Shown: positions 181-28,809 of the stretch, piece after piece | Position numbering within the stretch: the stretch's first letter is position 1 | Layout: every line of letters begins with the position of its first letter | Assembly (NCBI GenBank): GCA_000934665.2 | Contig: JYFJ02003515.1 | Span: forward strand, 1 to 40,649 | Reading direction: 5' to 3' | DNA length: 40,649 nucleotides | Source of the DNA: Catajapyx aquilonaris | Taxonomy: Eukaryota | Notes under the pieces: model-generated | The model's database searches: none | What the model was told of the DNA's origin: nothing | Seen by the model: the letters and a program-made list of their open reading frames with translations, nothing else | Made by a program: the position numbers and the translations under genes

Positions 181-318
181 GGTGACACTACTATCCGATG
201 CCCCAACTGTTCGCTAGAGGGTCTCAGGGACACGGGACATGGGGCCTGGGCCGAGGCATGCCCTATTTGGCAGAAAAGGAAACTCCAGTTGGCCCGCAGA
301 ACCGATTATGGCTACTGA
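181..318 (+). pseudogene. C-terminus of ORF1 (gag-like) of R1/LOA-like non-LTR retrotransposon copy A
   Basis: Manual translation from 181 gives IRCPNCSLEGLRDTGHGAWAEACPIWQKRKLQLARRTDYGY*, a CCHC zinc knuckle. The stop (316-318) lies just past the ORF2 ATG at 308, so the two ORFs overlap. Confidence 0.75.
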
Positions 319-2129
319 CTTCCCGGCGTTGACGATAGGACAGTTTAACGCGGGAAAGGGGAAGGTGGCAACGAGTTTGGGGGTGGAATGGGGAGCTGCA
401 AATGGCCTGGACATTTTGTGTCTGCAGGAGCCCCACATGCACACAGTGCGGAATAAGCGACGTTATCGGACTTATGCGAAGCCGCATTGCGGGGTGGCTC
501 TCGTGTGTTATAATAGGAATTTACGAATTACACATTTGGCTTCTTACTCCGGGGGCACCTTGGAAGCCTTTGCCGTAGGTAGCGGGCCGGGTGAGTTCAC
601 TCTAATTAACCTGTACTTGCCTCCCAGCGAGCGGATCTCTATACTTGCAGAGCTTGATACGGTCTCTTTGCTGAATACCCTGGGTCCGCGGAAGACACTG
701 GTGGTCGGAGATTTCAATGCCCGACTCAGTTTCTGGGGGGACCACATGGATAACAAGAGGGGCAGGGAGGTGTTGGAATGGTCGCTTAAGGGGGATTTTC
801 GGTTGTTGAATGACCCGAGCCAGGGCCCGACCTTTCGTTCCGCAAACGGAGAGAGCTTCATTGATCTTTCGTGGGCTCACGGTATTCCGGTGCAGAGCTG
901 GGGTCAGGTGGATGAGCCATTATACAGTGAGCGCTCTGCGATAGTGACTTGCCTCGGGGACAGTGACCCAATTCCCTCTGGAGGGATGGTCCTGTTTGCG
1001 GGCCGACTGGGTCGAGTTCGAACAATTGGTCGGATCGCGAATACCGGCGTGCATAGAGCTGACGGACCTTACCCGCGAGGACCTGGAGATGCGGGCCGGG
1101 GAGTTCCAATCTCTTTGCCTGAACACGGCTAAGGATTGCATCCCAAAAAGGACGGTTGCTGCGCGAGGGCGTAAATGTCGATTCTGGACCCCCGAATTGG
1201 ACAGGTAGCGCAGAGAGGCGAGACGGGCGCGTCGCAAATGGCAGGCCTCCGGAGGTGGCGGTTCGGGGAGGGAGAGAGGTTCGGAGAGGGAGAGGTCATG
1301 TCTTCTCAAGTGGAGAGCAGCTGCTAGGGAATATAAGGACTCCATAATCCTCCATAAGAGGAAGAGTTGAGAGAGTTTTTGTGAGACGGAGTCATCTAAG
1401 GATCCTTATTCCCTGCCCTACCGAATTATCCGAGATTCCTTCGGACAAAGGGTTGCCGACTCCGGGGGGTTGGAAGGCATTGTGGGCATAGGGATGGGTC
1501 AGCTGGATCAAGCCCTGGTCACGAAGTATTTTCCGGCAGATGATGGCTCTTGGGATCCCTCGGTACTGCTGTCTTATTTGGGAGATGGCTCGGTGGAATA
1601 TTTGATTACTAAAGATGAGTTGCGATCGGTGGTCGAGGACATTAATCCCAATAAGGCCTTGGGCCCTGAGGATCTCCCATTAGCCTGCCTTAAGCGAGTT
1701 TTTTCAGCGGCGGGGACTTACTGGCTGGCCCTGTTGAACTCCCTGTATCGTGGCCACTGCTTTCCGGAGGAGTGGAAACGTTCCCGGGTAGTCTGGATCC
1801 CGAAGGATCATGAGGGGGCGGTGAGGCCCATTTGTTTAGCTCCTGCTTTGGGGCGCGTGTGGGACAGAGTCTGTAACAAACGCCTGACGCATTGGCTGGA
1901 GACGAACCATAAGCTCCATCCTCGGCAGTTTGGTTTCCGGCCGGGTCGGGGGGTGGTGGAGGCCGTTGAGGGTCTGGTCGAGGCGATAGAAGGGGCCTGG
2001 GGAGATGGGAAACATTGCCTGTTGATAAACTTGTATATAAGTAATGCATTCAACAGCGTTCCTCACCAACGGGTTTTGCTGAGTCTGATAAATAAGGGCT
2101 GTCCGAAGGACTTGACGGGGGTGATTAGA
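308..2129 (+). mobile_element. R1/LOA-like non-LTR retrotransposon copy A, decayed ORF2: APE endonuclease, linker, N-terminal half of reverse transcriptase
   Basis: APE motifs GQFNAG, DILCLQEP, NLYLPP, VGDFNA, GPTF..GESFIDLSW. Linker FWTPELDR. RT motifs NKALGPEDL, FPEEWK..VVWIPK, RPICL, QFGFRPGRG, ISNAFNSV. Frameshift near 960-990, stop at 1206-1208; homology ends at about 2129. Confidence 0.9.
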
Positions 2130-4670: not shown

Positions 4671-5672
4671 GCCTTGACGCCTTGAAAGATGTGGGACATG
4701 CTACGGGGGCCTTTAACTGGCCGGTTTGGCTGAAAAGGAAGGATCAGTTGGTCAGGAGAACCGACTATGGTCAGCAACCGTGCATGCAAAGTTGGGCAAT
4801 TTAACGCAGGGGGTGGGGCTAACCCTACGAACCTGGCCCTAGAGTGGGGTGCGGCTAAGGGGCTGGACGTGTTGTGCGTTCAGGAGCCTCACGTGCCCAG
4901 TTTGAGGCATAAGCATAATCGGTGGACCCACACTGAGGGTGACCCGGTTGCGTTGGTCACGTACAGCAGGAACACGAGGGCGGTGAGCTTGGTGACCCTG
5001 TCCAGCCCTCTCATAAAGGCGTACTCAATTCGTAGTGGGAGGTTGGAGTTAGTGTTGGTGCACGTGTATCTCCCCCCCCCCCCCCCNCGGGGACATTGGG
5101 TCGGCCTTGGCACGACTGGACGAGGTTCTGGCGGCCTGCCCTGGGGAGTTGTGATTGCCGGGGACTTTAACGCCCGGCTTGACCTGTGGGGGGACCACCG
5201 GGATTCGGAGCGTGTGGAGGCGGCCCTTAAGTGGGCCACCCTGGCGAAGCTGCGGCTGGCAAATGTCGCCCCCTGCCTCCCGACCTATCAACATGGATAT
5301 CATATAAGTTGGATCGACCTCGCGTGGTTTAGGCGGGTGGAGAGTGGTGGCTGGGAGGTCTCAGCAGAGGACCTGTGTAGTGATCATCGAATGATTTTGT
5401 TCTGGGTTGAGAGGGATGAGGCGGCCACGGACTCCCTGCATTGGGCGTGGAGACGTGCGCACTGGTCCGACTTGGGAGCAGATGCTAGCCTCGTGGGCGG
5501 AGCGACGGCCTGATCCCGCATCGTTGGGGGTGGGAGAGCTCGAAGCCCTTGCCGAGGACTTTCAGGGGATTTGCTGGGAGGCAGCGGTTGATTGCATTCC
5601 CAGGAGGCGGGTGCGGCCTCAGGCGTACAGCTTCTGGTCACCCGTGTTGGCCAGGTTCCGCAGAGTCACTAG

Positions 5673-6942
5673 TAGTAGGGTCGCTTAACGTCGAATTTCG
5701 CGTCAATGTGGACACACCGGACAAAAGCAACAAAAAAATTTCCCAGGTACTAGTTACGTGCTTAGCTTTCAATTTTTGATAGGAGCCAACTCCTCCGCAG
5801 GCCATCTTGGATTTCACAGCGGCCATTATGAAATATATGCAAATGCCTGAACAAGCTCGGTTATTGCAGGAGTTTCAAGATAACTACATTCCCAATGAAG
5901 ACAAACATTTCCATCATCATGAAGAGGGACTTGCCACACAGACGAAATTCAAGGAACAGTCTATAAGGCTATATACAGTCATAAATTACTTTGGAAATCC
6001 GTTTACAGATGACAGTGACGAGTTATTGACTCTTGACACACGAAATGTTTTAGATGAGAGGGTAGTCAATACGGTGCGGACAGTTCAGAGTGTAGGCCAG
6101 GATCAGTATGACAAGTATTGCAAATCCGTTATCAGTGGTTGTACTCACTCCATTCATGAACCAATTAAGAAGAATTCACATCCTTTATTCACAACTCCTA
6201 CGCAAAAAATAAAGACAAAAGATAAGAGAAACCTATCATTACTTAAGACTGATGTTTCTCTAACTGTACATAGTGATGCAGCATAGGGACAGTGACATGA
6301 CTACATTCTTCAGTCATGATAATCATAATTTCCCCCCCTTCACTCTCTAGCGATGGAAGTCTGCGCTTCGGAAAGAAGTCAGATCTTATGAACATTCTGA
6401 ACAAGGATTCGCCAAATGATCCTCTTGAATATGTTGACGTGAAACTTCTCGATGGAGCCGCTGTTGTGCATATCCTCCCCCCAACTCCCAACATTGTCAC
6501 ATTTGATGGTCATGCTGATGATGTATTCATTCCACACATCAATAAACTATTAGAACTTATTAGAACTTGGCACTCCACCCTTACACAGAACTTGATATTG
6601 ATGATCAATATTTTCAACTACTAGAACGCTTAACCGTGATTTTGTATGATAAGAACTGTGAACTGGACAATGTGAATGAAGCCAGGAAGCTGTTCTGTCA
6701 GAAGAGTAAGTCAATGGAGGCCCCAAATAGGTATATTTCGACACCAAGCTTGTGATCCTAAGTGATTTAGAAGAAATCGATAATTTGCCTATATTTCAAA
6801 ATGGCCGCTGTGAAATCCAAGATGGCCGACGGAGGAGTTGGCTCCTATCAAAAATTGAAATCTAAGTACCTAACTAGTACCTGGGAAAAATTTGGTGCTT
6901 TTGTCCGGTGTGTCCACATTTTCACGATAAGCTGCTCCACTC
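5673..6942 (+). mobile_element. Internally deleted Academ-like DNA transposon carrying transposase/XPG(PIN)-like fragments
   Basis: About 140-bp inverted repeats (5705-5843 vs 6785-6920). Left terminus begins TAG; candidate 3-bp TSD tag (5670-5672 / 6943-6945). Internal peptides GNPF..DELL, PPSLSSDGSLRFGKKSDL, LLDGAAVVH, LERLTVILY...VNEARKLF resemble the Academ-associated XPG-like region. Host linker is continuous across it. Confidence 0.75.
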
Positions 6943-7705
6943 TAGGTAGGGCGCTGCGACGTAGTTACTAGGCCGTACGGGGTTTGGACCCGCATAGAGA
7001 GGAGCGGAGGCTGCAGGCGTCAATCGCGTCGAGAGTACAACAGGGCCCTTAAGGAACATAATATTGCGAGTTGGCGGCGCTACTGCGAGGAGGCGTCGGA
7101 AAAGGACCCCTTTTCGGTTCCTCACCGCATACTTCGGGCAGAGGATAGAGACCTCCGGAGGGGACGAGACGGGGGGCGGCGGATCTGGACAGCCTTGATC
7201 GCGAGTGGGTGGAGCGCCACTTTCCTAGGGATGATGGGTCTTGGAACCCCGCGGCCTACGATGGATCGGGCAGTGAGGAGCCCCGATCTTGCCGCAAGGG
7301 CTGCGTGGGAGACTCGGCGCGCGTTGAGGGACAACGGGGGCTGTGCCTCCTCCCTGGGCACAGACGTGGCCGCCTTTCCCTCTTGGCGACGATATCGGGG
7401 TGAGATTTTGCATTTGTCCCCAGACATGAGCCCGGTGGACATGGAGTTGTACACAGATTGATCCCTATTTGCCGGAGGGGAAGGTACCGGCGGTGCCGTC
7501 GTGTGCTTCGACTCTGACGGGACGGAGCGTTACAGGGAGGGCATCTCCTATGAGGATAATACGTCGATCTTTCAGGCGGAGCTGGGGTCGATCGTGAGGG
7601 GCCTGGAGTGGCTGGAGGAATCGGGCGGATGGACCACGGCCCACCTAGTTTCGGACTCAAACTCAGCCCTCCAGGCTCTTTGCAGCCCTAGCAGTACACA
7701 GGCCT

Positions 7706-10113
7706 GTGAGCCACACGACTGGGAAAAAGTCTGCAACTTAATCCCAATCAGAAAGGGTTTACCGAGGGTCAGGAGCTGTCCAGAAACATAGGGGTGTTAA
7801 AAGAAATGATAACGCAGGTGAAGGCTACCAGGCAGGAGTTGTCGATGGTGAGCCTGGATCTTCAGGCAGCCTTCGATTCGGTAGATCAACACCTGTATCA
7901 GGCAATGTAGTATGCTAATCTCCCGGACGGGTTCCGTCAGATCGTTCGCGATCTATACCAATTCACATGGACCCCGTTCAAAGTCAAAAAGAAAATTAAA
8001 AAGATTACATTCAAAGGGGTGTTAAACAGGGTGACCCGCTCTCCCCGCTATTGTTCAACATTTGTCTCGATGGCCTGTTGAATGCGGTGTGTGATGCCGA
8101 TGAAGGGGTTTGGCGGGGAGAAGCCTCGGCGGGTGCCTTAGGCTTTGCAGACGATATGGTGCTGTTGGCACCTACGATTAAAGACATGAAGTCTCTTTTG
8201 GCTATCACTAAATCATTTTTAGATTGGTCGGGATTACGGCTCAACGTCTCTAAATGCGCCCAGTTTGGGGTGGAAGGATTTGGCAGAACCTATTTCATTA
8301 AAGATTGTAAATTGATGTTCGAGGGCTCAAGGATCCCCTGTGTGGGACCGGAAGATAAATTCAGATATTTAGGGGCCAAAATCTACCCCTGGAGAGATGA
8401 CAAGTTTGAAGACGTTTATGAAACGCTTCAACGGGGAATCGAGATTATTGGGAAAGCCAAATTGAAGCCGAGCCAAAAACTAGGAATCTTAAAAACTTGT
8501 TTGATTCCCAGATTTATATACAGATGTACTGTGCACATACCCCCTACCCAGGGACTGTTACATGCGATGGATAGCGTTGCTGCTAAGTTCGCAAAGCAAT
8601 GGGTCCACTTGCACCACAGTACGACCAATGGGATGCTGTACTGTTGGCAGAATGACGGTGGTCTTGGGATCCCACACCTTCAGAGTGTTGGTTCCCCGAG
8701 TTATTGTCAGAAGACTTGAAAATATAAAAGAAGGCGAGGATCCTCTTTGGGACTCGGTAGCTGACAAAGACAAAGTCGACCGGTGGATAGGAAAGTGCCA
8801 CCAAATAGCTGGCAAGGCGGGGTTTGACTTTCGTCAGTATCACTTAGAACGATGGCAGGGACCGAGAGTCCAGGGTTGTTTTGCGAGGCATAGTGGTGGG
8901 AACGCGACCTTCCATTGGTGGTTGAAAACGAAACTTGGGGTTCCCACCGGTATTAAACCTGGTAGGTGGTGTGCGGCATTGCGCATTACAAATTAGAATG
9001 AATACTTATCCGACTAGAGAGGCGATGGCGCGTGGGCGCGGGCCAAATCCAATAGGAAATGCAGGCGATGTGGATGGGGTGTAGAATCTATCGGGCACAT
9101 CTCTGGCTGGTGCTTCCAATTGAAGGATCAGAGGATTAGAAGGCACAACAGGGTGCAGTAGGCTATTGTGCAAGCCTTGAGGAAGAAAGGGCTTAGAGTA
9201 GATGAGAATATACAGATACGGGTTGGCTGGCGTCAAATACATACCAGATGCGGTAGTGTATGATGGGGTGCAGGAGAAATTGTATATCCTGGATGTTACG
9301 ATTCATGGTGAAACGGGTGATGCCCTGGCTCTGGCAAACTTAGAGAAAGAAAGAAAATATTTACCGCTTATAAAAGTCCTGGATGAAGAATATGGAGCGG
9401 TAGAAGTTAATTTGTGGGGCCTAGCGTATGGGATGACTGGAATAGTGCCTAACGAGACTAAAAGGAGACTAAACGCTCTTGGTATTGGCACAAAAAGGCT
9501 TCATCAGAATCTTAGTAGAGGGATTACGGAGTACACTATAAGTTTGATGCAGATGTTTATGGATATGTAGGATCGGAGGAAAGAAATATTGGAGATTAGT
9601 GGGTAGGGTTTACACGTGGGTGTTCCCCTTTGACCCCTTGTCCTATCTATGGCCGTGGGGCCTCTCTCTCCCTTCCTTACAGTCCAGTCCGTTCTACCCG
9701 TCATATATATGCCTTCTATTTCACATCCTGGTCCCAACACAAGCCGAAATCGATTCAAGGCTCGGACATGATCCTATCGACGAAAAGAGAAACTTTTGCC
9801 CATGTTTATTGCTGAGTCGATAGGACAAGGAATGTGTAGCTGGGGGGCTGTGACCAACCATGTCTGGCCCAACCAGAAGTAAAATAGTTTTTGATGTTAA
9901 GTTATTTTATTTGAAGTTTATTTTCTGTTTTCTTTGAGAGTATATCGTTGTTGAAGATGTAGAGTCTAATTTGTAGTTAGAACCTTGTGTTGTCTTTCCC
10001 CCTTTCCCTTTTATGATTTGAGGTTTTCCTCAGTTATTGTTATGCTGTAACCTGCAGCTAATCAGGGAAAATCCAGAGTAAGAGCCGCCCTTCAATGGGT
10101 AGGCGACAGTCCG
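7706..10113 (+). mobile_element. 5'-truncated, decayed R2-clade non-LTR retrotransposon (RT, CCHC knuckle, restriction-like endonuclease, ~540-nt 3' UTR)
   Basis: RT motifs NQKGF, LDLQAAFDSV, QGDPLSPLLFN, GFADDMVL, GLRLNVSKC, FRYLG, LKPSQK, DGGLGIP. Knuckle CRRCGWGVESIGHISGWC, then RHN, IPD..ILDVTI, KERKY (RLE). ORF stops at 9570. Several stops and frameshifts. Confidence 0.9.
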
Positions 10114-10140
10114 TAGTCAAATGCCTCGTCGCCTAATTAG
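10114..10140 (+). other. 27-nt 28S rDNA-derived R2 target sequence at the R2 3' junction (not an rRNA gene)
   Basis: tagtcaaatgcctcgtcgcctaattag matches the conserved 28S sequence immediately 3' of the R2 insertion site (TAGCCAAATGCCTCGTCATCTAATTAG) at 24/27 positions. No other rDNA was recognised in the window. Confidence 0.85.
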
Positions 10141-10323
10141 CCTTTTGGCCGCCAAGGTCCAGGTGATGCTTAGCGCCATGGAGGGGCGCACCACCATTAG
10201 ATGGGTTAAGGCCCATGCGGGAACTGCCGGGAATGAGGCGGCCGACCAGTTGGCGGGTGAGGCGGACAGGATGCACAATGATTGCCAGCACGTGGTCAAA
10301 TTGGTCAAGTTGCGTGACGCTGC

Positions 10324-10638
10324 AACAAACGCGATAATTGACTCCCTCATTGAACGTTAGTCTTTCAGTCCCTCTCACAGCAAACACGGAGCACTGGAGT
10401 CTCATTGACAGAGAGGAACAGACTGGACTCGGAATCAGTAAGTGACCCAAAGTGACCTCAACATGATTGTGTTTTTAACAAACGCGATAATTGACTCCCT
10501 CATTGAACATAGTCTTTCAGTCCCTCTTCCCCGCTCTCTCACAGCAAACAAAAACTTCGTCTTCTCCGGAGCACTGGCGACAGAGGAGACTCCGAATCAG
10601 TAAGTGACCCAAAGTGACCTCAACATGATTGTGTTTTT
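10324..10638. repeat. Imperfect tandem duplication, two units of ~155-160 bp
   Basis: Units start at 10324 and 10477 with aacaaacgcgataattgactccctcattgaac and both end gaatcagtaagtgacccaaagtgacctcaacatgattgtgttttt. Confidence 0.9.
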
Positions 10639-11519
10639 ACACATAACTCAATGTGAAAATCTTGGGAAACTTGGCTCACAAGTAGGTAGGCTATAGCAGT
10701 TGTGCATGTGGCGCCGGTATTCAACATCATCTTGCCGGAAGACTTCGGGGATGAAAATGAGCCATATGAAATTTGCCATTCAAATTGAAGACTGCACAGG
10801 TATAGAAATCCCAGTTAATTTACCTCATTAAATCCGCCAATCATAAAATCGTGTAATGAAGACACCAGATGCCAGTCACATTCTGCCTGACACCATATGC
10901 ATGGCAGTTAAAAAAAAGTTTGATGTTAGTAACTTTTAAAAATCTCCTGAGTGTAATTATAATGCGAAAATCCCAATTAAAATTAGCAATTACTCGTAAT
11001 ATAGGGTACGTTGTATTGAGCGACCCTTGAAAAAAAAAACAAAATATTTTATTTGATGCCCAATTTTATGCAAAATTGGGTCGAGTCATCAGCCGTCTAT
11101 ACAACACAGTCCGAAGCTGTGCCTTACAGAGTGAGTGTCAGTGCGTGCTTCAAGCGTCGGCAAGGATTGAGCAGAATATTTGGATGTCACACTGCCTCGT
11201 AAAACTGTAAAAGTGTACCGCAGCCGCACGACATTGTTGCTCACAGAGTGGGCAATATTTCATAGGATTTATTGAGAAGCTCTGTTTCAAGGTGGTGTTT
11301 CAAGGTGAGTGGCATGGTTCTCCAGCCATTTTCATATGCAACAATCTGTCACCTGACTCAATGTCACTTCTCCCAGCATTCACACGGTCGTAGTCGCATT
11401 TATCTGCTGGACAACTGTACCACATTTCATGAGAACATATGCTAAAAAGAGGCCCCTCGCATCGGCTGCACTTTTCCGGGTCGCGTATTTCCGAACCGTA
11501 CCACATTCTAACCCCATGT

Positions 11520-12345
11520 GCTCAGGGTTCAGATAGTGGAAAGTTGCTCGGACCGGTTCTGGCATACTTATCAGGTTGGCACTGGTCCTGGAGCTTTTAC
11601 ATTAGTCTCCGCATACGTGTCCCCAGGTACCTCCTTGGACGTGGCTTTGGAAAGCATTGAGAAGGGCATGACGCGAACGGGGAAAGCAGTCATATTAGGG
11701 GATTTTAATGCTCGCTCCCCGGTCTGGGGGGGGGGGGGGGTGGGAGACTATGGAGTCGGATCGTGGTTTAAGGATGGTGGATTGGACCACGGAACGGGAT
11801 CTCCTAATTGTAAATGACGTGAGGGAGGGCCCCACGTTCCTGACTGGCAATGGCAGTAGCCATATTGACCACACGCTCGCCAAAGCAATGCAACTTAGCG
11901 ATTGGAAGATTGACTCCGAAGAACTATGGAGTGACCATAGGCCCATTACTTTTGTTGTAGGTGATGTACATCTCCCGGAACCGGGGCTAAAGTGGTTAGT
12001 CGACAGGGCCGATTGGGTGGGGTTCGGGACGGCCATTAAGGAGTGGACGCTGCGAAATGCGATCTCTCCTGATCTTTCTTTGGGGGAGGTGGAAGGGTTA
12101 GCTGAGGATCAGCAAGGGGAGTGTGAGCGAGTGGCTCGGCAGTTCATCCCCAGCAAGCGCAGGCAATCCAGGGCTTCGTGGTCGTGGTCTCCGGAGCTGG
12201 CACGACTCAGAAAATAGTCGAGGAATCTCAGGAGACGGTGGCAATGCACTAGGGGCCGGACAAGAAAAGCAGGCGGGGACAGGGATGCCTGGAAAGCTTA
12301 CGCTGATGTCCGCAAATTGTATAAGGAGGCTCTCAGGAGTCATAA
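11520..12345 (+). mobile_element. R1/LOA-like non-LTR copy C, fragment of APE endonuclease and linker
   Basis: LVSAYVSP, ILGDFNARSPVWG, GPTFLTGNGSSHIDHTL, WSDHRPITF, RADW, WSWSPELARLRK; frameshift at the poly-G run near 11730. Confidence 0.85.
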
Positions 12346-12525
12346 AATTGAGAGTTGAAAAGGAACTGTCGTATTTTTCTTGGCTCCTTCAGGGCATCTC
12401 TCTTTAGTTGATTTGGGACATATTTGAATTAATTGAATGCCAGGGACTTGCGGTTTTAACCGCCCGCTCTTCAAGCGGTTTGGATTAGAAACAGATGGCG
12501 TCACAAAATCCCTCAACGCCAGAAC

Positions 12526-13200
12526 TGAGTTGCAGGGGCGTGCGGAGGAGTTTCAGAACACGTGCTTGCAATCTGGCAGAGATAGCATCCCCAGGACTAG
12601 AGCGGAGACCCGCGCACATGCATGTCAGTTCTGATCCCCGGAGTTGGGGAGATTGAGGAAGGGTGCCAGAACAGCGCGCCGTAAATGGCAGGCTTCTCGG
12701 GGCTTCGGAACGGAGGCGGAGAGAACAAGGCTTCTTGTTTGGAGGCGGGCATCCAGGGCCTATAAGGACGCCATCATTCTCCATAAAAAGAGTAGTTGGG
12801 AGAAATTCTGCGAAAGGGAATCTTCTAAGGACCCATACTCCCTCCCTTACCGAATAATAATTAGAGAATCTTTCGGTCAGAGCATCAGCAGCTCGGGTGG
12901 AATGGAAGCAGGGGCGGGTACGGGATGGGGAAACTCGATCAGGCTTTAGTACGAAAATACTTCCCGAAAGACAACGGATCATGGGACCCTTCGGTGCTCT
13001 CGTCTTATCTGGAGGACACGTCCGAAGAGCTACCTCTCACGATGGATGAACTCCAACTAGTGACAGAGGAAATTAACCCCTGTAAGGCGCTTGGACCGGA
13101 GGATCTCCCTCTGGCCTGTCTGAGGCGAGTCTTTTTAGCCGTTGGACCTTTTTGGCTCGCCCTCCTCAATCTTCTGTTTCGGTCGCATTACTTCCTGGAT
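12526..13200 (+). mobile_element. R1/LOA-like non-LTR copy D, linker to RT start, close relative of copy A (about 1080-1765)
   Basis: Shared blocks with copy A: SSKDPYSLPYRII, LDQALV.KYFP.D.GSWDPSVL, INP.KALGPEDLPLACL.RVF, WLALLN. Confidence 0.85.
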
Positions 13201-13278
13201 GCGGAACATCTGCAGCTCCATTGCATGCTGCCTTTGGTCGTTGGAGCTCGCCATAGACTTTTAGTAGCCTCCGTCCGT

Positions 13279-13342: not shown

Positions 13343-16099
13343 CACGGTTCCTGGGTTAATTGTTATTTCAGGGTTATAATTCTGCACCCAAGACCTCACG
13401 CTACGCTCCCATAATATTTCGGAAAAGCTTCGGGGGATAGAGTTGGCCGTGCGTCAAGACTTCCGATGATCCCAGCGAGGCCTCCAAATCGCGCTCCGGA
13501 AGAAACAAAAATACGTACTACAAGACTTGCAAATTCGTCGCGCGAACGAAAAGTTTGCGAGGAACTTGTATACAATAAAACAGTTCCTCGCCAAATGTGC
13601 TCATTGCACTTCATGGATTTATGATGTGGGGAGCGCAGAGGTTTTTTTCAGTTACATGCTGGGACTGCGATGGAAGTCGCCGATCTTCAAGCGATTAGAA
13701 TTAGAATACTCTAGATGCCACTTCGGCGAGTTTACAGTGTCTATGTTGACGGTTTTGAACCCTTATTGGGTTGGGGGGATGAAAGGCTATCCCGGGCCGT
13801 CTCCCCCTTAAATTCTTAAATTTCAATGTCCCCATATAAGTAAGCAGGCAGGGCAGGCGTGCTCTGTTGGGGCGTGCACTGGGAATTGACCTCTGCATGT
13901 CGGGAAAAGGGTCACGGGGTCACAGGGGGTAGGTCACGCTTGATGCCTTTTCCTGGCGTGCAGAGGTCAATTCTCGAAATTCCATCCGATCGCCTTCGAA
14001 TTTTATGGGTAGAGAGACCACACCAAGGGATGAAAGACCCAACAAGCGTGACCTGCCCCACATGACAAGATTACTGTGCGATTACAGAAGATTCAGCTGA
14101 AGGTGCAGAAGGCAAAGAGGGTCAAGGTCCAATCATTGTTGAAGTGCCTGTCGCAGGAAAGGCTACAAAGATCACTTTTCCGCCATGCAGGGGAGCGGGG
14201 CTACTTTTGGTTGACAGGACAAGAGTGCTGAAAAGAGCCTGCGCCACTTCAGTTGCGTTATCGACTGGCTACCAAATTGATTGAAATTTTCAAATAAATT
14301 CCATATATTTTAATCAAGTAAAAATACTGTCCATTAGAGTAATGTACACTACCAGGGCATGAAAAATAATCAAGGGATATGGATTACGAAATTCGACTAA
14401 AATAATATAATTCTGCACAGCAGGTCTCCATACATTAGCGGCCCTTTTCCTCGTTGCTATTCATACGATAACACAAATACAATTAAATAATTTTCAGCAC
14501 ATTTATATGATCATAACCTCCATTATGACATGAACTCCTAGGAAAGTGCCAGTAAGGTGACATGACGCCGCAAGTACCCAAAAATAACAGCCTAGTGAAC
14601 TAAGAACGAAGAACAACCATGCATTACACATTCACCTCATCAAAATTGCAGATGAAGGTAGAGGTCTGGTTAATCTTAATTAAACCAGAGAAATACATGC
14701 TTTCTTCGCGTGGCTTAATCTGGCACGAAATCTTTCGTGGTTGAATAAGTGAAGAAAAAGGCATTGCATTCCTACTGCACTGCGATTTAATTGCACATCT
14801 CTATTAGCTCCAGTACAATAATGCCACAATATTATGCAAAGGCATGTGGATAGTAGTATTGAACAACATGTAGGATTCATTTTTATTACCCACAACCTCC
14901 AGATAAATGATGAAACTTTCAGCAAGACAATAATATATCGTCGGACATATGTTTAAAAGAATTAATACTAATTAACTACTCATTAATACAAAAAGAATAT
15001 TCTCTGGTATGGAAACAATGTCAGTAGAATCAGAAGACGAGGACATAGACATGTCATGCGCCTGTGGGAGCAATCAACCAATAGATACATCACAAGGTGC
15101 TGTTGACACAAGAGGACGGACTGCTGAAACACAGGTAACGGCTTGAGATATTTTGTTAATAATAATAATAATAACAACAAGTCTGCACATCAATTAGTCT
15201 TCTTTTACAACGCTAATGACCCTACCCACGCCAACAACGCAATAGAAACAGTTTCATTAGAAAGGGCAGTATAATGGTCAAGATCTTGCATCCAGTGGAC
15301 GGATTCTCACACCTGCATGTCATACTAGAAATGCTCAGTTGACACCTTAATACTCACATGAGATAGGAGCCATCATTAAAGAGCTCACTATGTGGCTTTC
15401 AAATTACGCCTTACGACAACCAAACACGTGTTCAAAAGAACTCGTTTAAAATGTAATCACGTTGTTCATATTTCTCATAATCATTGCAATCACGACGCTC
15501 TTTTCTATAACATCACCGCCACGATTGCTCAAGGAATTTAAAAGTAGGATTAGGTGACCCTAAAACCCTACAACACTAATACTCATGAGCAGGTTGTGAC
15601 CCCATGATTGGAACAATGACAATGGCAGGTGGATGCAACCTCACCAACCACCAGTACTACTATTTTCATGTGGAGAAATACATCACTGTGACTTGTAATA
15701 CATACTGTGATAACACACTGACATTGGATGGGCAGATCACGTCAAATGATCCAAGAATATGATAATAGGTCAACCGACTGCTGCAGCCAATCACTGTGTG
15801 CTAACATATTCGGTACAGAGAAGCCGAATACTTGAGCCATTTTCACAAGCTTCTACAATAATAACAGCCGTCACATGCAGGCCGACGCGACGCGAGTAGA
15901 CAGTGATAATAATATAATAAAGCGACGAACTGCAGAAGTAAAATTTGCAATAATGTCCAGAGAACCTGATCAGAGGCAGCCAGGGCACCGATATCACTTT
16001 TAAATAATTTCATATTTTTCCAACACGCAGACCGACAATATCATTAATATACCGGTTTATTAAATGTGTGGATCAGACAATCTCAATCTGAAGCAGTGA

Positions 16100-27212: not shown

Positions 27213-28809
27213 TGTCGGCGTCTTAATGGGTTTTTTAAAAAACAAAGCACCCCCTTTTAAAAAATTACCCGCTTCGAAACCACTCTTGTGTTTCTCTAAA
27301 CAGTCAAAGAATTTCCATGGATATCGCCAACAAATATTTGTTAGCAATGACAATGTCAATAAATGCCACGGATTTCATGTCATCTTGTTTGTTGTATGAT
27401 CAGCCAACTTGCATGGGTGTACTGTACGGATGGCACATTACATGTAAAACCTTTTATACTGTTACGAAACCCAAACCTAGTGTCTTTGGCACAGATCCAT
27501 TACCCGCAAGGAATTGCAGCAGGTGACTTAACAAATACAGTGAATGTAGGATATCAAGTAGGCTACTGTATATGTGGTTATAATTGCACCGCGATATAGT
27601 TACATCGACAAGTCATACATCATGATCAGATGATCATTCTTGCTGCATGACTCCGCATGACTCACTTTTTATTCACCTCTCCCCGAAGAAGCAAATAAAG
27701 ACGTTCCGAAACTCATGAGGTAGACGAAAATCCGAAATCACAACTTTTTGCTACTGTTTTTTACGTACTTTTACAGATTTTAAACAACCTATGTAGTTAT
27801 TCTACCAGTCACGATGCGTCAAATTGCTCCATGAAATTATGTAGCAATATCCATGCACTATAAATGTGGAATCAAGTCTAAGGGTAGGTTATATCAATTC
27901 AAACTGGGGATAAAATTTCATTATGTCATATTATGGATTATAAACATGTGCACATGATTTAATATCTTCCCTTACATGTTCTCATACTACAGGCAGTGAT
28001 GTAGTGAATAAATAATTCCATAAGAAGCCATGTCACTACTTCACCTTTTTACGACTACTGCGTCTACAGAACACTTTTCATGTAACCTCATTGCTAAAAA
28101 AGACGGTTCTTAATTATTTATATCACGCTCTTCTGCGATTCCGATGCTCCACGACTTGTCTACTTTGCTTACAATATAACACCTGCATGGCTTCCATCCA
28201 CTGAATTTCGTCCATCGTCGTCTTCAGAGAGATTCAATGCATAGTTATAGTTAAGCAGTGTTATTCATGATATTTGTGTATCGATCGGATATAAATTAGT
28301 TTCTCGCCTAACAAATCACGCTGTTTTTTTATTAATTATTATTTATGCCACTTAATTCAGGTCATATCCGACATCGTGTGGATTCAGACATTGCATGATA
28401 ATGAATTATAGTTGCGTCGCAATATTAAAGACCAGTTACATACGTATCTCTCTTTGTCTCCTATCCCAAAGACCTGTCCGGCTTGGGTGGCCCTACGAGT
28501 AGACGAAGCTACCGCCGGCATAGCTCTTGGAGTCACTGGAGATACGCAACCCCCTCCCCCCCCCCCCNCCCCCCCCCCCCCCCCCCCAGCACCACCTCCA
28601 CGATCAGGTGGAGATACCATCGGGCGATGTACTGCGGGCACCTAACCAAGGGCGAACAGCGCCGAATTCCAGGAATGTCACCGTCAATTAAAGTCGCATT
28701 CAATTGCATTACTTCAATAATCAATTTATATGCTTTTTTTGTTGTGATAGATTCTACCCATTGCATATCTGCTACATGACACTGTTTGGTAGCTCTGACC
28801 AGTATAGCT

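Follow-up and report, generated by a model that had tools for sequence, protein, structure and literature searches.

We found that the window, by which we mean the whole 40,649-nt contig analyzed here (C1822 in G000, a 286-Mb assembly of 20,583 contigs whose other members carry C-numbers), contains a real, single-copy, dead R2 fragment at about 7694-10113, that its 3′ end is followed by host 28S sequence, and that the RNase H halves on its two sides are discordant. A second contig, C2180, has the same R2-28S-R1 order. We consider it probable, at roughly 60%, that the locus is an eroded R2-28S-R1 stack outside working rDNA and that the tail is an ordinary downstream flank. The fragment belongs to a new, extinct R2 family, and the locus is a real yet ordinary fossil in R1/R2 debris. 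The features that enter into this argument are listed in Table 1.

Table 1. R1, R2, and 28S features of the window, in order of position (aa numbers refer to the intact R1 ORF2 of C2180)
Feature	Position	Strand	Remarks
R1 piece: ORF1 end, APE, first RT part (to aa 596)	184..2114	+	aa 3-596 = 299-2114
R1 piece: ORF1 end and APE (aa 3-305)	4717..5670	+	Pfam Exo_endo_phos; blastx 51-54% to intact R1; blastn; aa 3-305 and aa 306-416 together = 4758-7262
Element with 140-bp inverted ends (91% alike), interrupting R1	5705..6920	.	self-blastn
R1 continuation, aa 306-416, then jump over whole RT domain	6948..7262	+	
R1 lineage A, aa 836 to about 974, first RNase H part	7273..7693	+	ends at linker codon 5
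R2 ORF, 5′ truncated (RT, thumb, CCHC, RLE)	7694..9570	+	motifs, homologue alignment
R2 3′ UTR, 543 nt	9571..10113	+	single copy in assembly
Host 28S rDNA, 28 nt from R2 nick	10114..10141	+	27/28 to C2180 28S piece
R1 other lineage, aa about 978-1030, second RNase H part	10142..10300	+	starts at linker codon 8; single copy
Two more broken R1 ORF2 pieces, aa 76-348 and aa 261-482	11521..13203	+	
R1 3′ end, then match to 28S R1 target of C2180	13664..13836	+	8/9 match at 13828-13836

The original prediction had recognized an R2-type RT/CCHC/RLE element here. Its identity held up, but its intactness did not. In a six-frame reading, the RT motifs QKGF (7749), QGDPLSP (from 8018), FADD (8144), and YLG (8366) are followed by the CCHC motif (9060-9113), RHN (9141), and the RLE motifs PDAV (9244), LDVT (9289), and EKERKY (9343), with a stop at 9568-9570. 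The order of RT, CCHC, and C-terminal RLE is kept (7749-9360) and is colinear with R2 homologues; Pfam gave no RLE match for 9202-9567. The frame is broken by three in-frame stops (7707, 7908, and 9159) and five frame changes, and the fragment is truncated inside the RT, with the N-terminal zinc finger/Myb region, the 5′ UTR, and the ribozyme missing. When compared with PDB, the RT-thumb frame (8000-8716) best matched the R2 chains 9nl3, 9dou, and 9nl2 (E values of 7e-39 to 3e-37), then R2Bm (8gh6; 6e-20) and L1 (about 1e-11). These scores place R2Tg above R2Bm as the closer match, in a setting where the deep forks of the RT tree are weak (58/71). Named matches among the best 120 of 501 protein homologues include R2DM-labelled proteins. 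The RT phylogeny, which the original prediction had proposed as a check, was built from 54 rows, namely the window, 36 of the 120 best homologues that are either named or close, and 17 RT segments from the same genome, each at least 150 residues long, out of 29 candidate loci; its references hold no named Utopia, NeSL, or R4. In this tree the window R2 pairs with the R2 of C4531 (98/98) among R2-like rows, away from the 16 other own-genome RTs, which sit on long branches.

The 28S tail begins at the R2 nick position of the Rfam LSU consensus, as had been predicted. The exact canonical 27-nt match that had been claimed for it did not stand: the tail agrees with the consensus at 24 of 27 positions, with three differences in the first 27, and is better described as 28 nt of a host variant. 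A 27/28 match of this kind is expected by chance in the window with a probability of about 1e-10. A genome-wide search with the 27-mer pattern found two places, the window and C2180 (control, 0). In the 28S remnants of the window (10114-10141), C2180, and C8716, G-C pairs stand in place of the consensus A-U and U-G pairs in the stem after the R2 site. Because the stem stays paired and the variant is common to three remnants on different elements, it is probably the host's own 28S, to judge from the sequences. We found no 28S upstream of R2 in the window, in agreement with the original prediction, and no Rfam match in the window at gathering score; a scan of 9560-10200 gave a chance match only. 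The absence of both upstream 28S and an Rfam rRNA match suggests a displaced fossil rather than an rDNA-resident copy.

At the 5′ side, the boundary had been placed at 7702, with a possible 4-bp gcct duplication (7702-7705/10140-10143). Neither survived the alignment of R2 homologues, 29 HSPs of which begin at 7695 while 33 reach 7674, into the flank. Where the window has Q-Y-T-G-L, one homologue has R-L-Y-T-G-L, and the C4531 R2, also aligned from 7695, reads Y-A-G-L-W-A-R-R against Y-T-G-L-stop-A-T-R, with the W opposite the stop. Since R2 homology runs from 7695 and the match of the left repeat family stops at 7693, the junction lies near 7693/7694, although its position is uncertain within 7692-7701. 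The R2 frame begins by 7695, and gcct at 7702-7705 therefore lies within the coding part of R2. A join of the flanks there puts RNase H out of frame, and the two junction regions have three different 4-mers in common where about one is expected, which is chance-level sharing. A TAGC duplication (7689-7692/10138-10141) was also rejected; the join is in frame, but it leaves a linker of 24 residues, compared with 27 in 7/7 R1 lineages checked.

The R1 pieces were mapped on the intact R1 ORF2 of C2180 (1181 aa), an APE-RT ORF2 that lies behind a CCHC ORF1 in an element inserted into 28S downstream of the R2 target; the name R1 reflects this site and architecture rather than a phylogeny with named R1 sequences. 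All R1 pieces between 184 and 13836 are on one strand and deletion-broken (the left piece, for example, passes from aa 416 to aa 836), and they have 32-68% protein identity to the intact element. The nine nucleotides at 13828-13836 read as a second 28S remnant of the window. When the left APE piece was used to look for an intact relative, the best matches reached 66-72%, over a fragment only, so that the R1 sequence at 4717-7262 may go with either the left or the right RNase H piece. Around the element at 5705-6920, R1 homology breaks off at aa 305 and picks up at aa 306. This element is probably a DNA transposon; it is 1.2 kb long, has two ORF pieces without a Pfam match, and is repeated elsewhere, since read depth rises at its ends. 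Separately, an imperfect tandem duplication of about 155 bp (10324-10639) cuts off the right R1 piece, and an aspartyl-protease-like piece (weak Pfam match) lies beside a 174-bp inverted repeat of 98% identity (2529-2867/2789-3262).

We then come to the RNase H domain, which R2 had been said to split. RNase H pieces do lie on both sides, with DSNSALQAL (7654-7680) on the left and WVKAH (10202), GNEAAD (10229), and the Pfam RNase_H match on the right, but the comparisons speak against a single element. The left piece has 90-94% DNA identity to C4189, C8545, C4536, and C1455, and 91-93% to a repeat family, and matches 12 other contigs, five of which reach the junction; 5/5 continue with sequence unlike the window's right piece. 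The left half agrees with C8545 at 166/178 positions and the right half with the same family's continuation at 59/114 (Fisher p 2e-16), and when anchored on codons the left identity to the lineage-A family is 28/30 versus the same 59/114 on the right. Seven unrelated R1 lineages agree among themselves at 52-71/114, a range that contains the value of the right half. As far as the assembly shows, the two halves seem to stem from different R1 lineages. A DNA search of the assembly with the right piece returned one match, the piece itself. Empty-site copies of the host element were found neither by DNA nor by protein search, in the assembly or in read-derived contigs; the protein search gave nine other matches at 44-58%, with only the best candidates scored. 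We note that the five lineage-A copies have deletions in common that the window does not have. They consequently count as one lineage, and the chimera may lie on their side instead of that of the window. Decayed and internally deleted R1 RNase H pieces are also amplified in composite repeats elsewhere (loci L041-L055 on C4189, C8545, C4536, C1455, C300, C8213, C10126, C6758, and other contigs), some of which run from the RT YADD motif directly into RNase H.

Other loci in the genome preserve the same neighbors. On the minus strand of C2180 (11200-32100; L036-L039), non-rDNA sequence is followed by an R2 3′ fragment, a 28S stretch of about 75 nt that fills the interval between the R2 nick and the R1 site, and an R1 tandem array of two full units and part of a third; the whole arrangement is outside rDNA. 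The units are of different lineages with the 28S target motif between them, and the first has an open ORF1 and the 1181-aa ORF2 with RNase H. The R2 of C2180 differs from that of the window, with 57% protein identity around the CCHC and a 3′ UTR of 187 versus 543 nt. On the minus strand of C4531 (2900-7700; L033), an R2-like piece and 23 nt of upstream 28S precede a near-full but broken R2, a G run, and an R1 APE piece; this sister R2 keeps the canonical upstream-28S 5′ junction. C4952, C14009, and C4630 carry short internal RT pieces without ends (72-81% protein identity), and the other RT pieces are fragments with 41-81% protein identity. A search of the genome with the RLE region found the window and C2180 only. 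Both R2 copies with a 3′ UTR (2/2) continue into 28S from the nick and then into R1 sequence, over 28S lengths that differ, and a 28S gene that carries both insertions natively has this R2-28S-R1 order. A further 28S remnant (C8716:4850-5035; L091; Rfam LSU, 58.9 bits) lies between two R1-type target motifs and has a degenerate R2 site. A first, stricter look through the assembly recovered no intact rDNA and one weak match, so R2 copies inside rDNA are invisible there. Inside the C2180 28S piece there is also an element of about 290 nt with a 12-bp duplication (L037 9686-9951), which we take to be RTE-like; the window has a 90% identical copy of its 5′ part on the minus strand (28446-28629).

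We also considered whether the locus could be a misassembly that joined unrelated repeats, which would suit the fragmented state of the assembly. A single 2741-nt contig, assembled independently from reads of three runs, agrees with the window at every position of 7613-10353 and spans both junctions, and read depth over the R2 insert, counted at 88% likeness in the same runs, is flat at 29-38 and equal to that of the flanks. Together these support the assembly and the single copy. The three runs are from one sample that is possibly the source of the assembly itself, and read-derived contigs, which drop rare variants, carry lineage-A letters rather than the window's at 7535-7604. The lineage-A letters are probably a collapsed bubble. 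We regard misassembly as the least credible of the explanations considered here.

To account for the locus as an eroded stack, we propose that R2 would have inserted at its normal 28S site and R1 at its own target, which lies some 60-74 nt further downstream. From there the block may have left rDNA as DNA, through rearrangement of decaying rDNA and R1 arrays; alternatively, a co-transcript could have been copied by R1 machinery. Deletions or 5′ truncation would have removed the 5′ half of R2, the 28S past +28, and most of the downstream R1, and the same losses would have brought the R2 piece to lie after part of another R1. The 28-nt tail would be downstream flank and no part of R2, and the apparently split RNase H would be pieces of two R1 lineages lying almost in register by chance. 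We infer this course of events, and the way in which the block left rDNA, from the arrangements on C2180 and C4531, the one-strand, deletion-broken R1 pieces of the window with their 8/9 R1 target, and the discordant halves. The failure to find an empty site, a second copy of the right piece, or, in contigs assembled from the three runs, a joint that skips the R2 insert also favors an eroded stack, as do the incomplete non-rDNA R2 copies, the fusion of an R1 5′ part to an R2 3′ part, and the R1 tandem arrays that the accessible text of PMC2718515 describes. What this reading leaves unexplained is the near-register of the two halves, which are 8 nt from perfect register; for unrelated pieces we estimate a chance of about 1%. 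If the cut is placed at 7701/10142, the linker is in frame and has its usual 27 residues, so that 7694-7701 is also readable as host sequence or microhomology. The common deletions of the lineage-A copies weigh here as well, and a 13-kb stack that holds only 28 + 9 nt of rDNA has no intact rDNA in the assembly to be compared with.

The same near-perfect register speaks for a one-off ectopic retrotransposition, which we consider possible but doubtful. Here an R2 RNA reading 28 nt into 28S would have been reverse transcribed from its 3′ end at a break in the RNase H of one R1 copy and truncated at its 5′ end. The truncated end would have joined through microhomology of up to 8-10 nt, or 8 nt of the target would have been deleted, in either case without a duplication, and the host would already have been a chimera of two R1 lineages or would have become one in the same event. 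The blunt 7701/10142 join would restore the 27-residue linker of R1. The parts of PMC2718515 available to us report that truncated R2 5′ junctions show microhomologies of 1-5 nt and that R1 insertions outside 28S brought along as much as 14 nt of downstream 28S, and the accessible text of PMC6795142 reports R2 templates with read-through 28S. The original prediction had offered such a copy of a read-through RNA as one of two readings, and its R2 with a 28S-derived flank outside rDNA stands; the insertion event itself needs the chimeric R1 host. Two lineages that are about 52% alike would have to cross over no more than about 8 nt from the insertion point, an event for which we estimate a similar chance of about 1%, so that the stack and single-host readings each entail a coincidence. 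The lack of an empty site in the assembly and the read-derived contigs also counts against ectopic insertion, as do 7695-7703, which read Y-T-G as in R2 homologues, and C2180, which has the same order without a split host. In an unlikely variant, the read-through RNA, 28S portion of 28 nt included, would have been copied where an R1 tandem array had broken off target, and the same event would have joined the RNase H of one lineage to the corresponding position of another and deleted about one array unit. If this were true, R2 would be a homology-guided rearranger of R1 arrays and the locus a natural record of R2 3′ transduction. The other proposal of the original prediction, a retargeted R2 lineage that escaped rDNA and fixed its old target as a constant 3′ end, is highly improbable and is largely refuted in the assembly. 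The copy is outside rDNA, its tail starts exactly at the nick, and non-specific R2 families and 28S-like 3′ UTRs exist according to the consulted text of PMC5035012. However, the copy is dead and is single both by DNA search and by depth, and the constant 27-nt tail in diverse flanks that a check of all 3′ junctions was to reveal came down to two places; at the second, which lies behind an R2 of another family, 28S runs on to the R1 site. The window's tail agrees with the host 28S variant at 27/28, the one further R2 3′ end recovered has about 75 nt of 28S and a much shorter UTR, and the sister R2 of C4531 has a canonical upstream-28S junction.

Taken as an eroded stack, the locus adds one extinct R2 family and another case of displaced R1/R2 debris, and it matters little beyond that. 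Scraps of 28S beside dead R elements can preserve host 28S where an assembly misses rDNA. If an ectopic insertion were proven, the locus would be a natural case of R2 taking downstream 28S to an off-target site, and it would bear on what off-target events look like when R2 proteins are used to insert genes.

Non-rDNA R2 copies, R1/R2 fusions, and carried-over 28S are already published kinds of observation; a literature search, with most subscription papers outside its scope, returned no paper on this locus. Among the nearest cases are those of Drosophila, where the accessible portion of Stage and Eickbush (2009, PMC2718515) describes incomplete R2 copies outside 28S in five species, an R1-5′/R2-3′ fusion outside rDNA, and R1 tandem arrays separated by the 28S target. 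The window resembles them in its incomplete R2 outside rDNA and in the joining of an R1 5′ part to an R2 3′ part, and the R1 arrays with 28S target in between and the short downstream 28S on displaced elements are likewise alike. According to the same portion of that paper, the Drosophila copies are 1-2% from rDNA copies, whereas the window R2 is old, and the three read runs contain nothing related to it above 88%; the carried 28S is described for R1 and reaches 14 nt, compared with 28 nt behind R2 here; and, unlike the elements described there, the R1s of the window and C2180 carry RNase H. R2/R1 hybrid SIDEs and R2 template jumps are described in the available text of Eickbush and Eickbush (2012, PMC3414825), and the window is like these hybrids in being an R1/R2 chimera with foreign sequence joined to the R2 5′ end. 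As in R2Tg (PDB 9dou/9nl3) and R2Bm (8gh6), the order is RT-CCHC-RLE and the 3′ end lies at the 28S nick; unlike them, the window R2 has lost its N-terminal and 5′ parts and its frame is broken.

Elements that have changed or lost their target offer a further comparison. The consulted parts of Kojima et al. (2016, PMC5035012) report two non-specific R2 families, R2NS-1_SMed and R2NS-1_CSi, seven R2 families with 28S-like 3′ UTRs, fish R2 included, and dead avian R2 remnants flanked by fragmented 28S, and the accessible texts of PMC7650587 and PMC12247875 describe BLAG as non-site-specific R2-like elements and non-site-specific sponge elements, respectively. The window is like R2NS, BLAG, and fish R2 in having an R2-type element outside rDNA with 28S-derived 3′ sequence. 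As far as those texts go, R2NS and BLAG are multi-copy, with some copies more than 98% identical to the consensus, and in fish R2 the 28S-like segments belong to the UTR and have diverged, whereas the window has one dead copy and a segment that matches host 28S at 27/28. The many copies in unrelated flanks that mark R2NS and BLAG are absent here, the 3′ UTR having one match, on one contig, in the whole assembly by DNA search, with depth equal to the flanks; a fixed, diverged 28S-like UTR segment of the fish type is also absent, the other R2 end having a longer, continuing 28S. By this comparison, and on the portion of PMC5035012 consulted, the avian remnants with fragmented 28S would appear to fit the window better than R2NS, BLAG, or fish R2.
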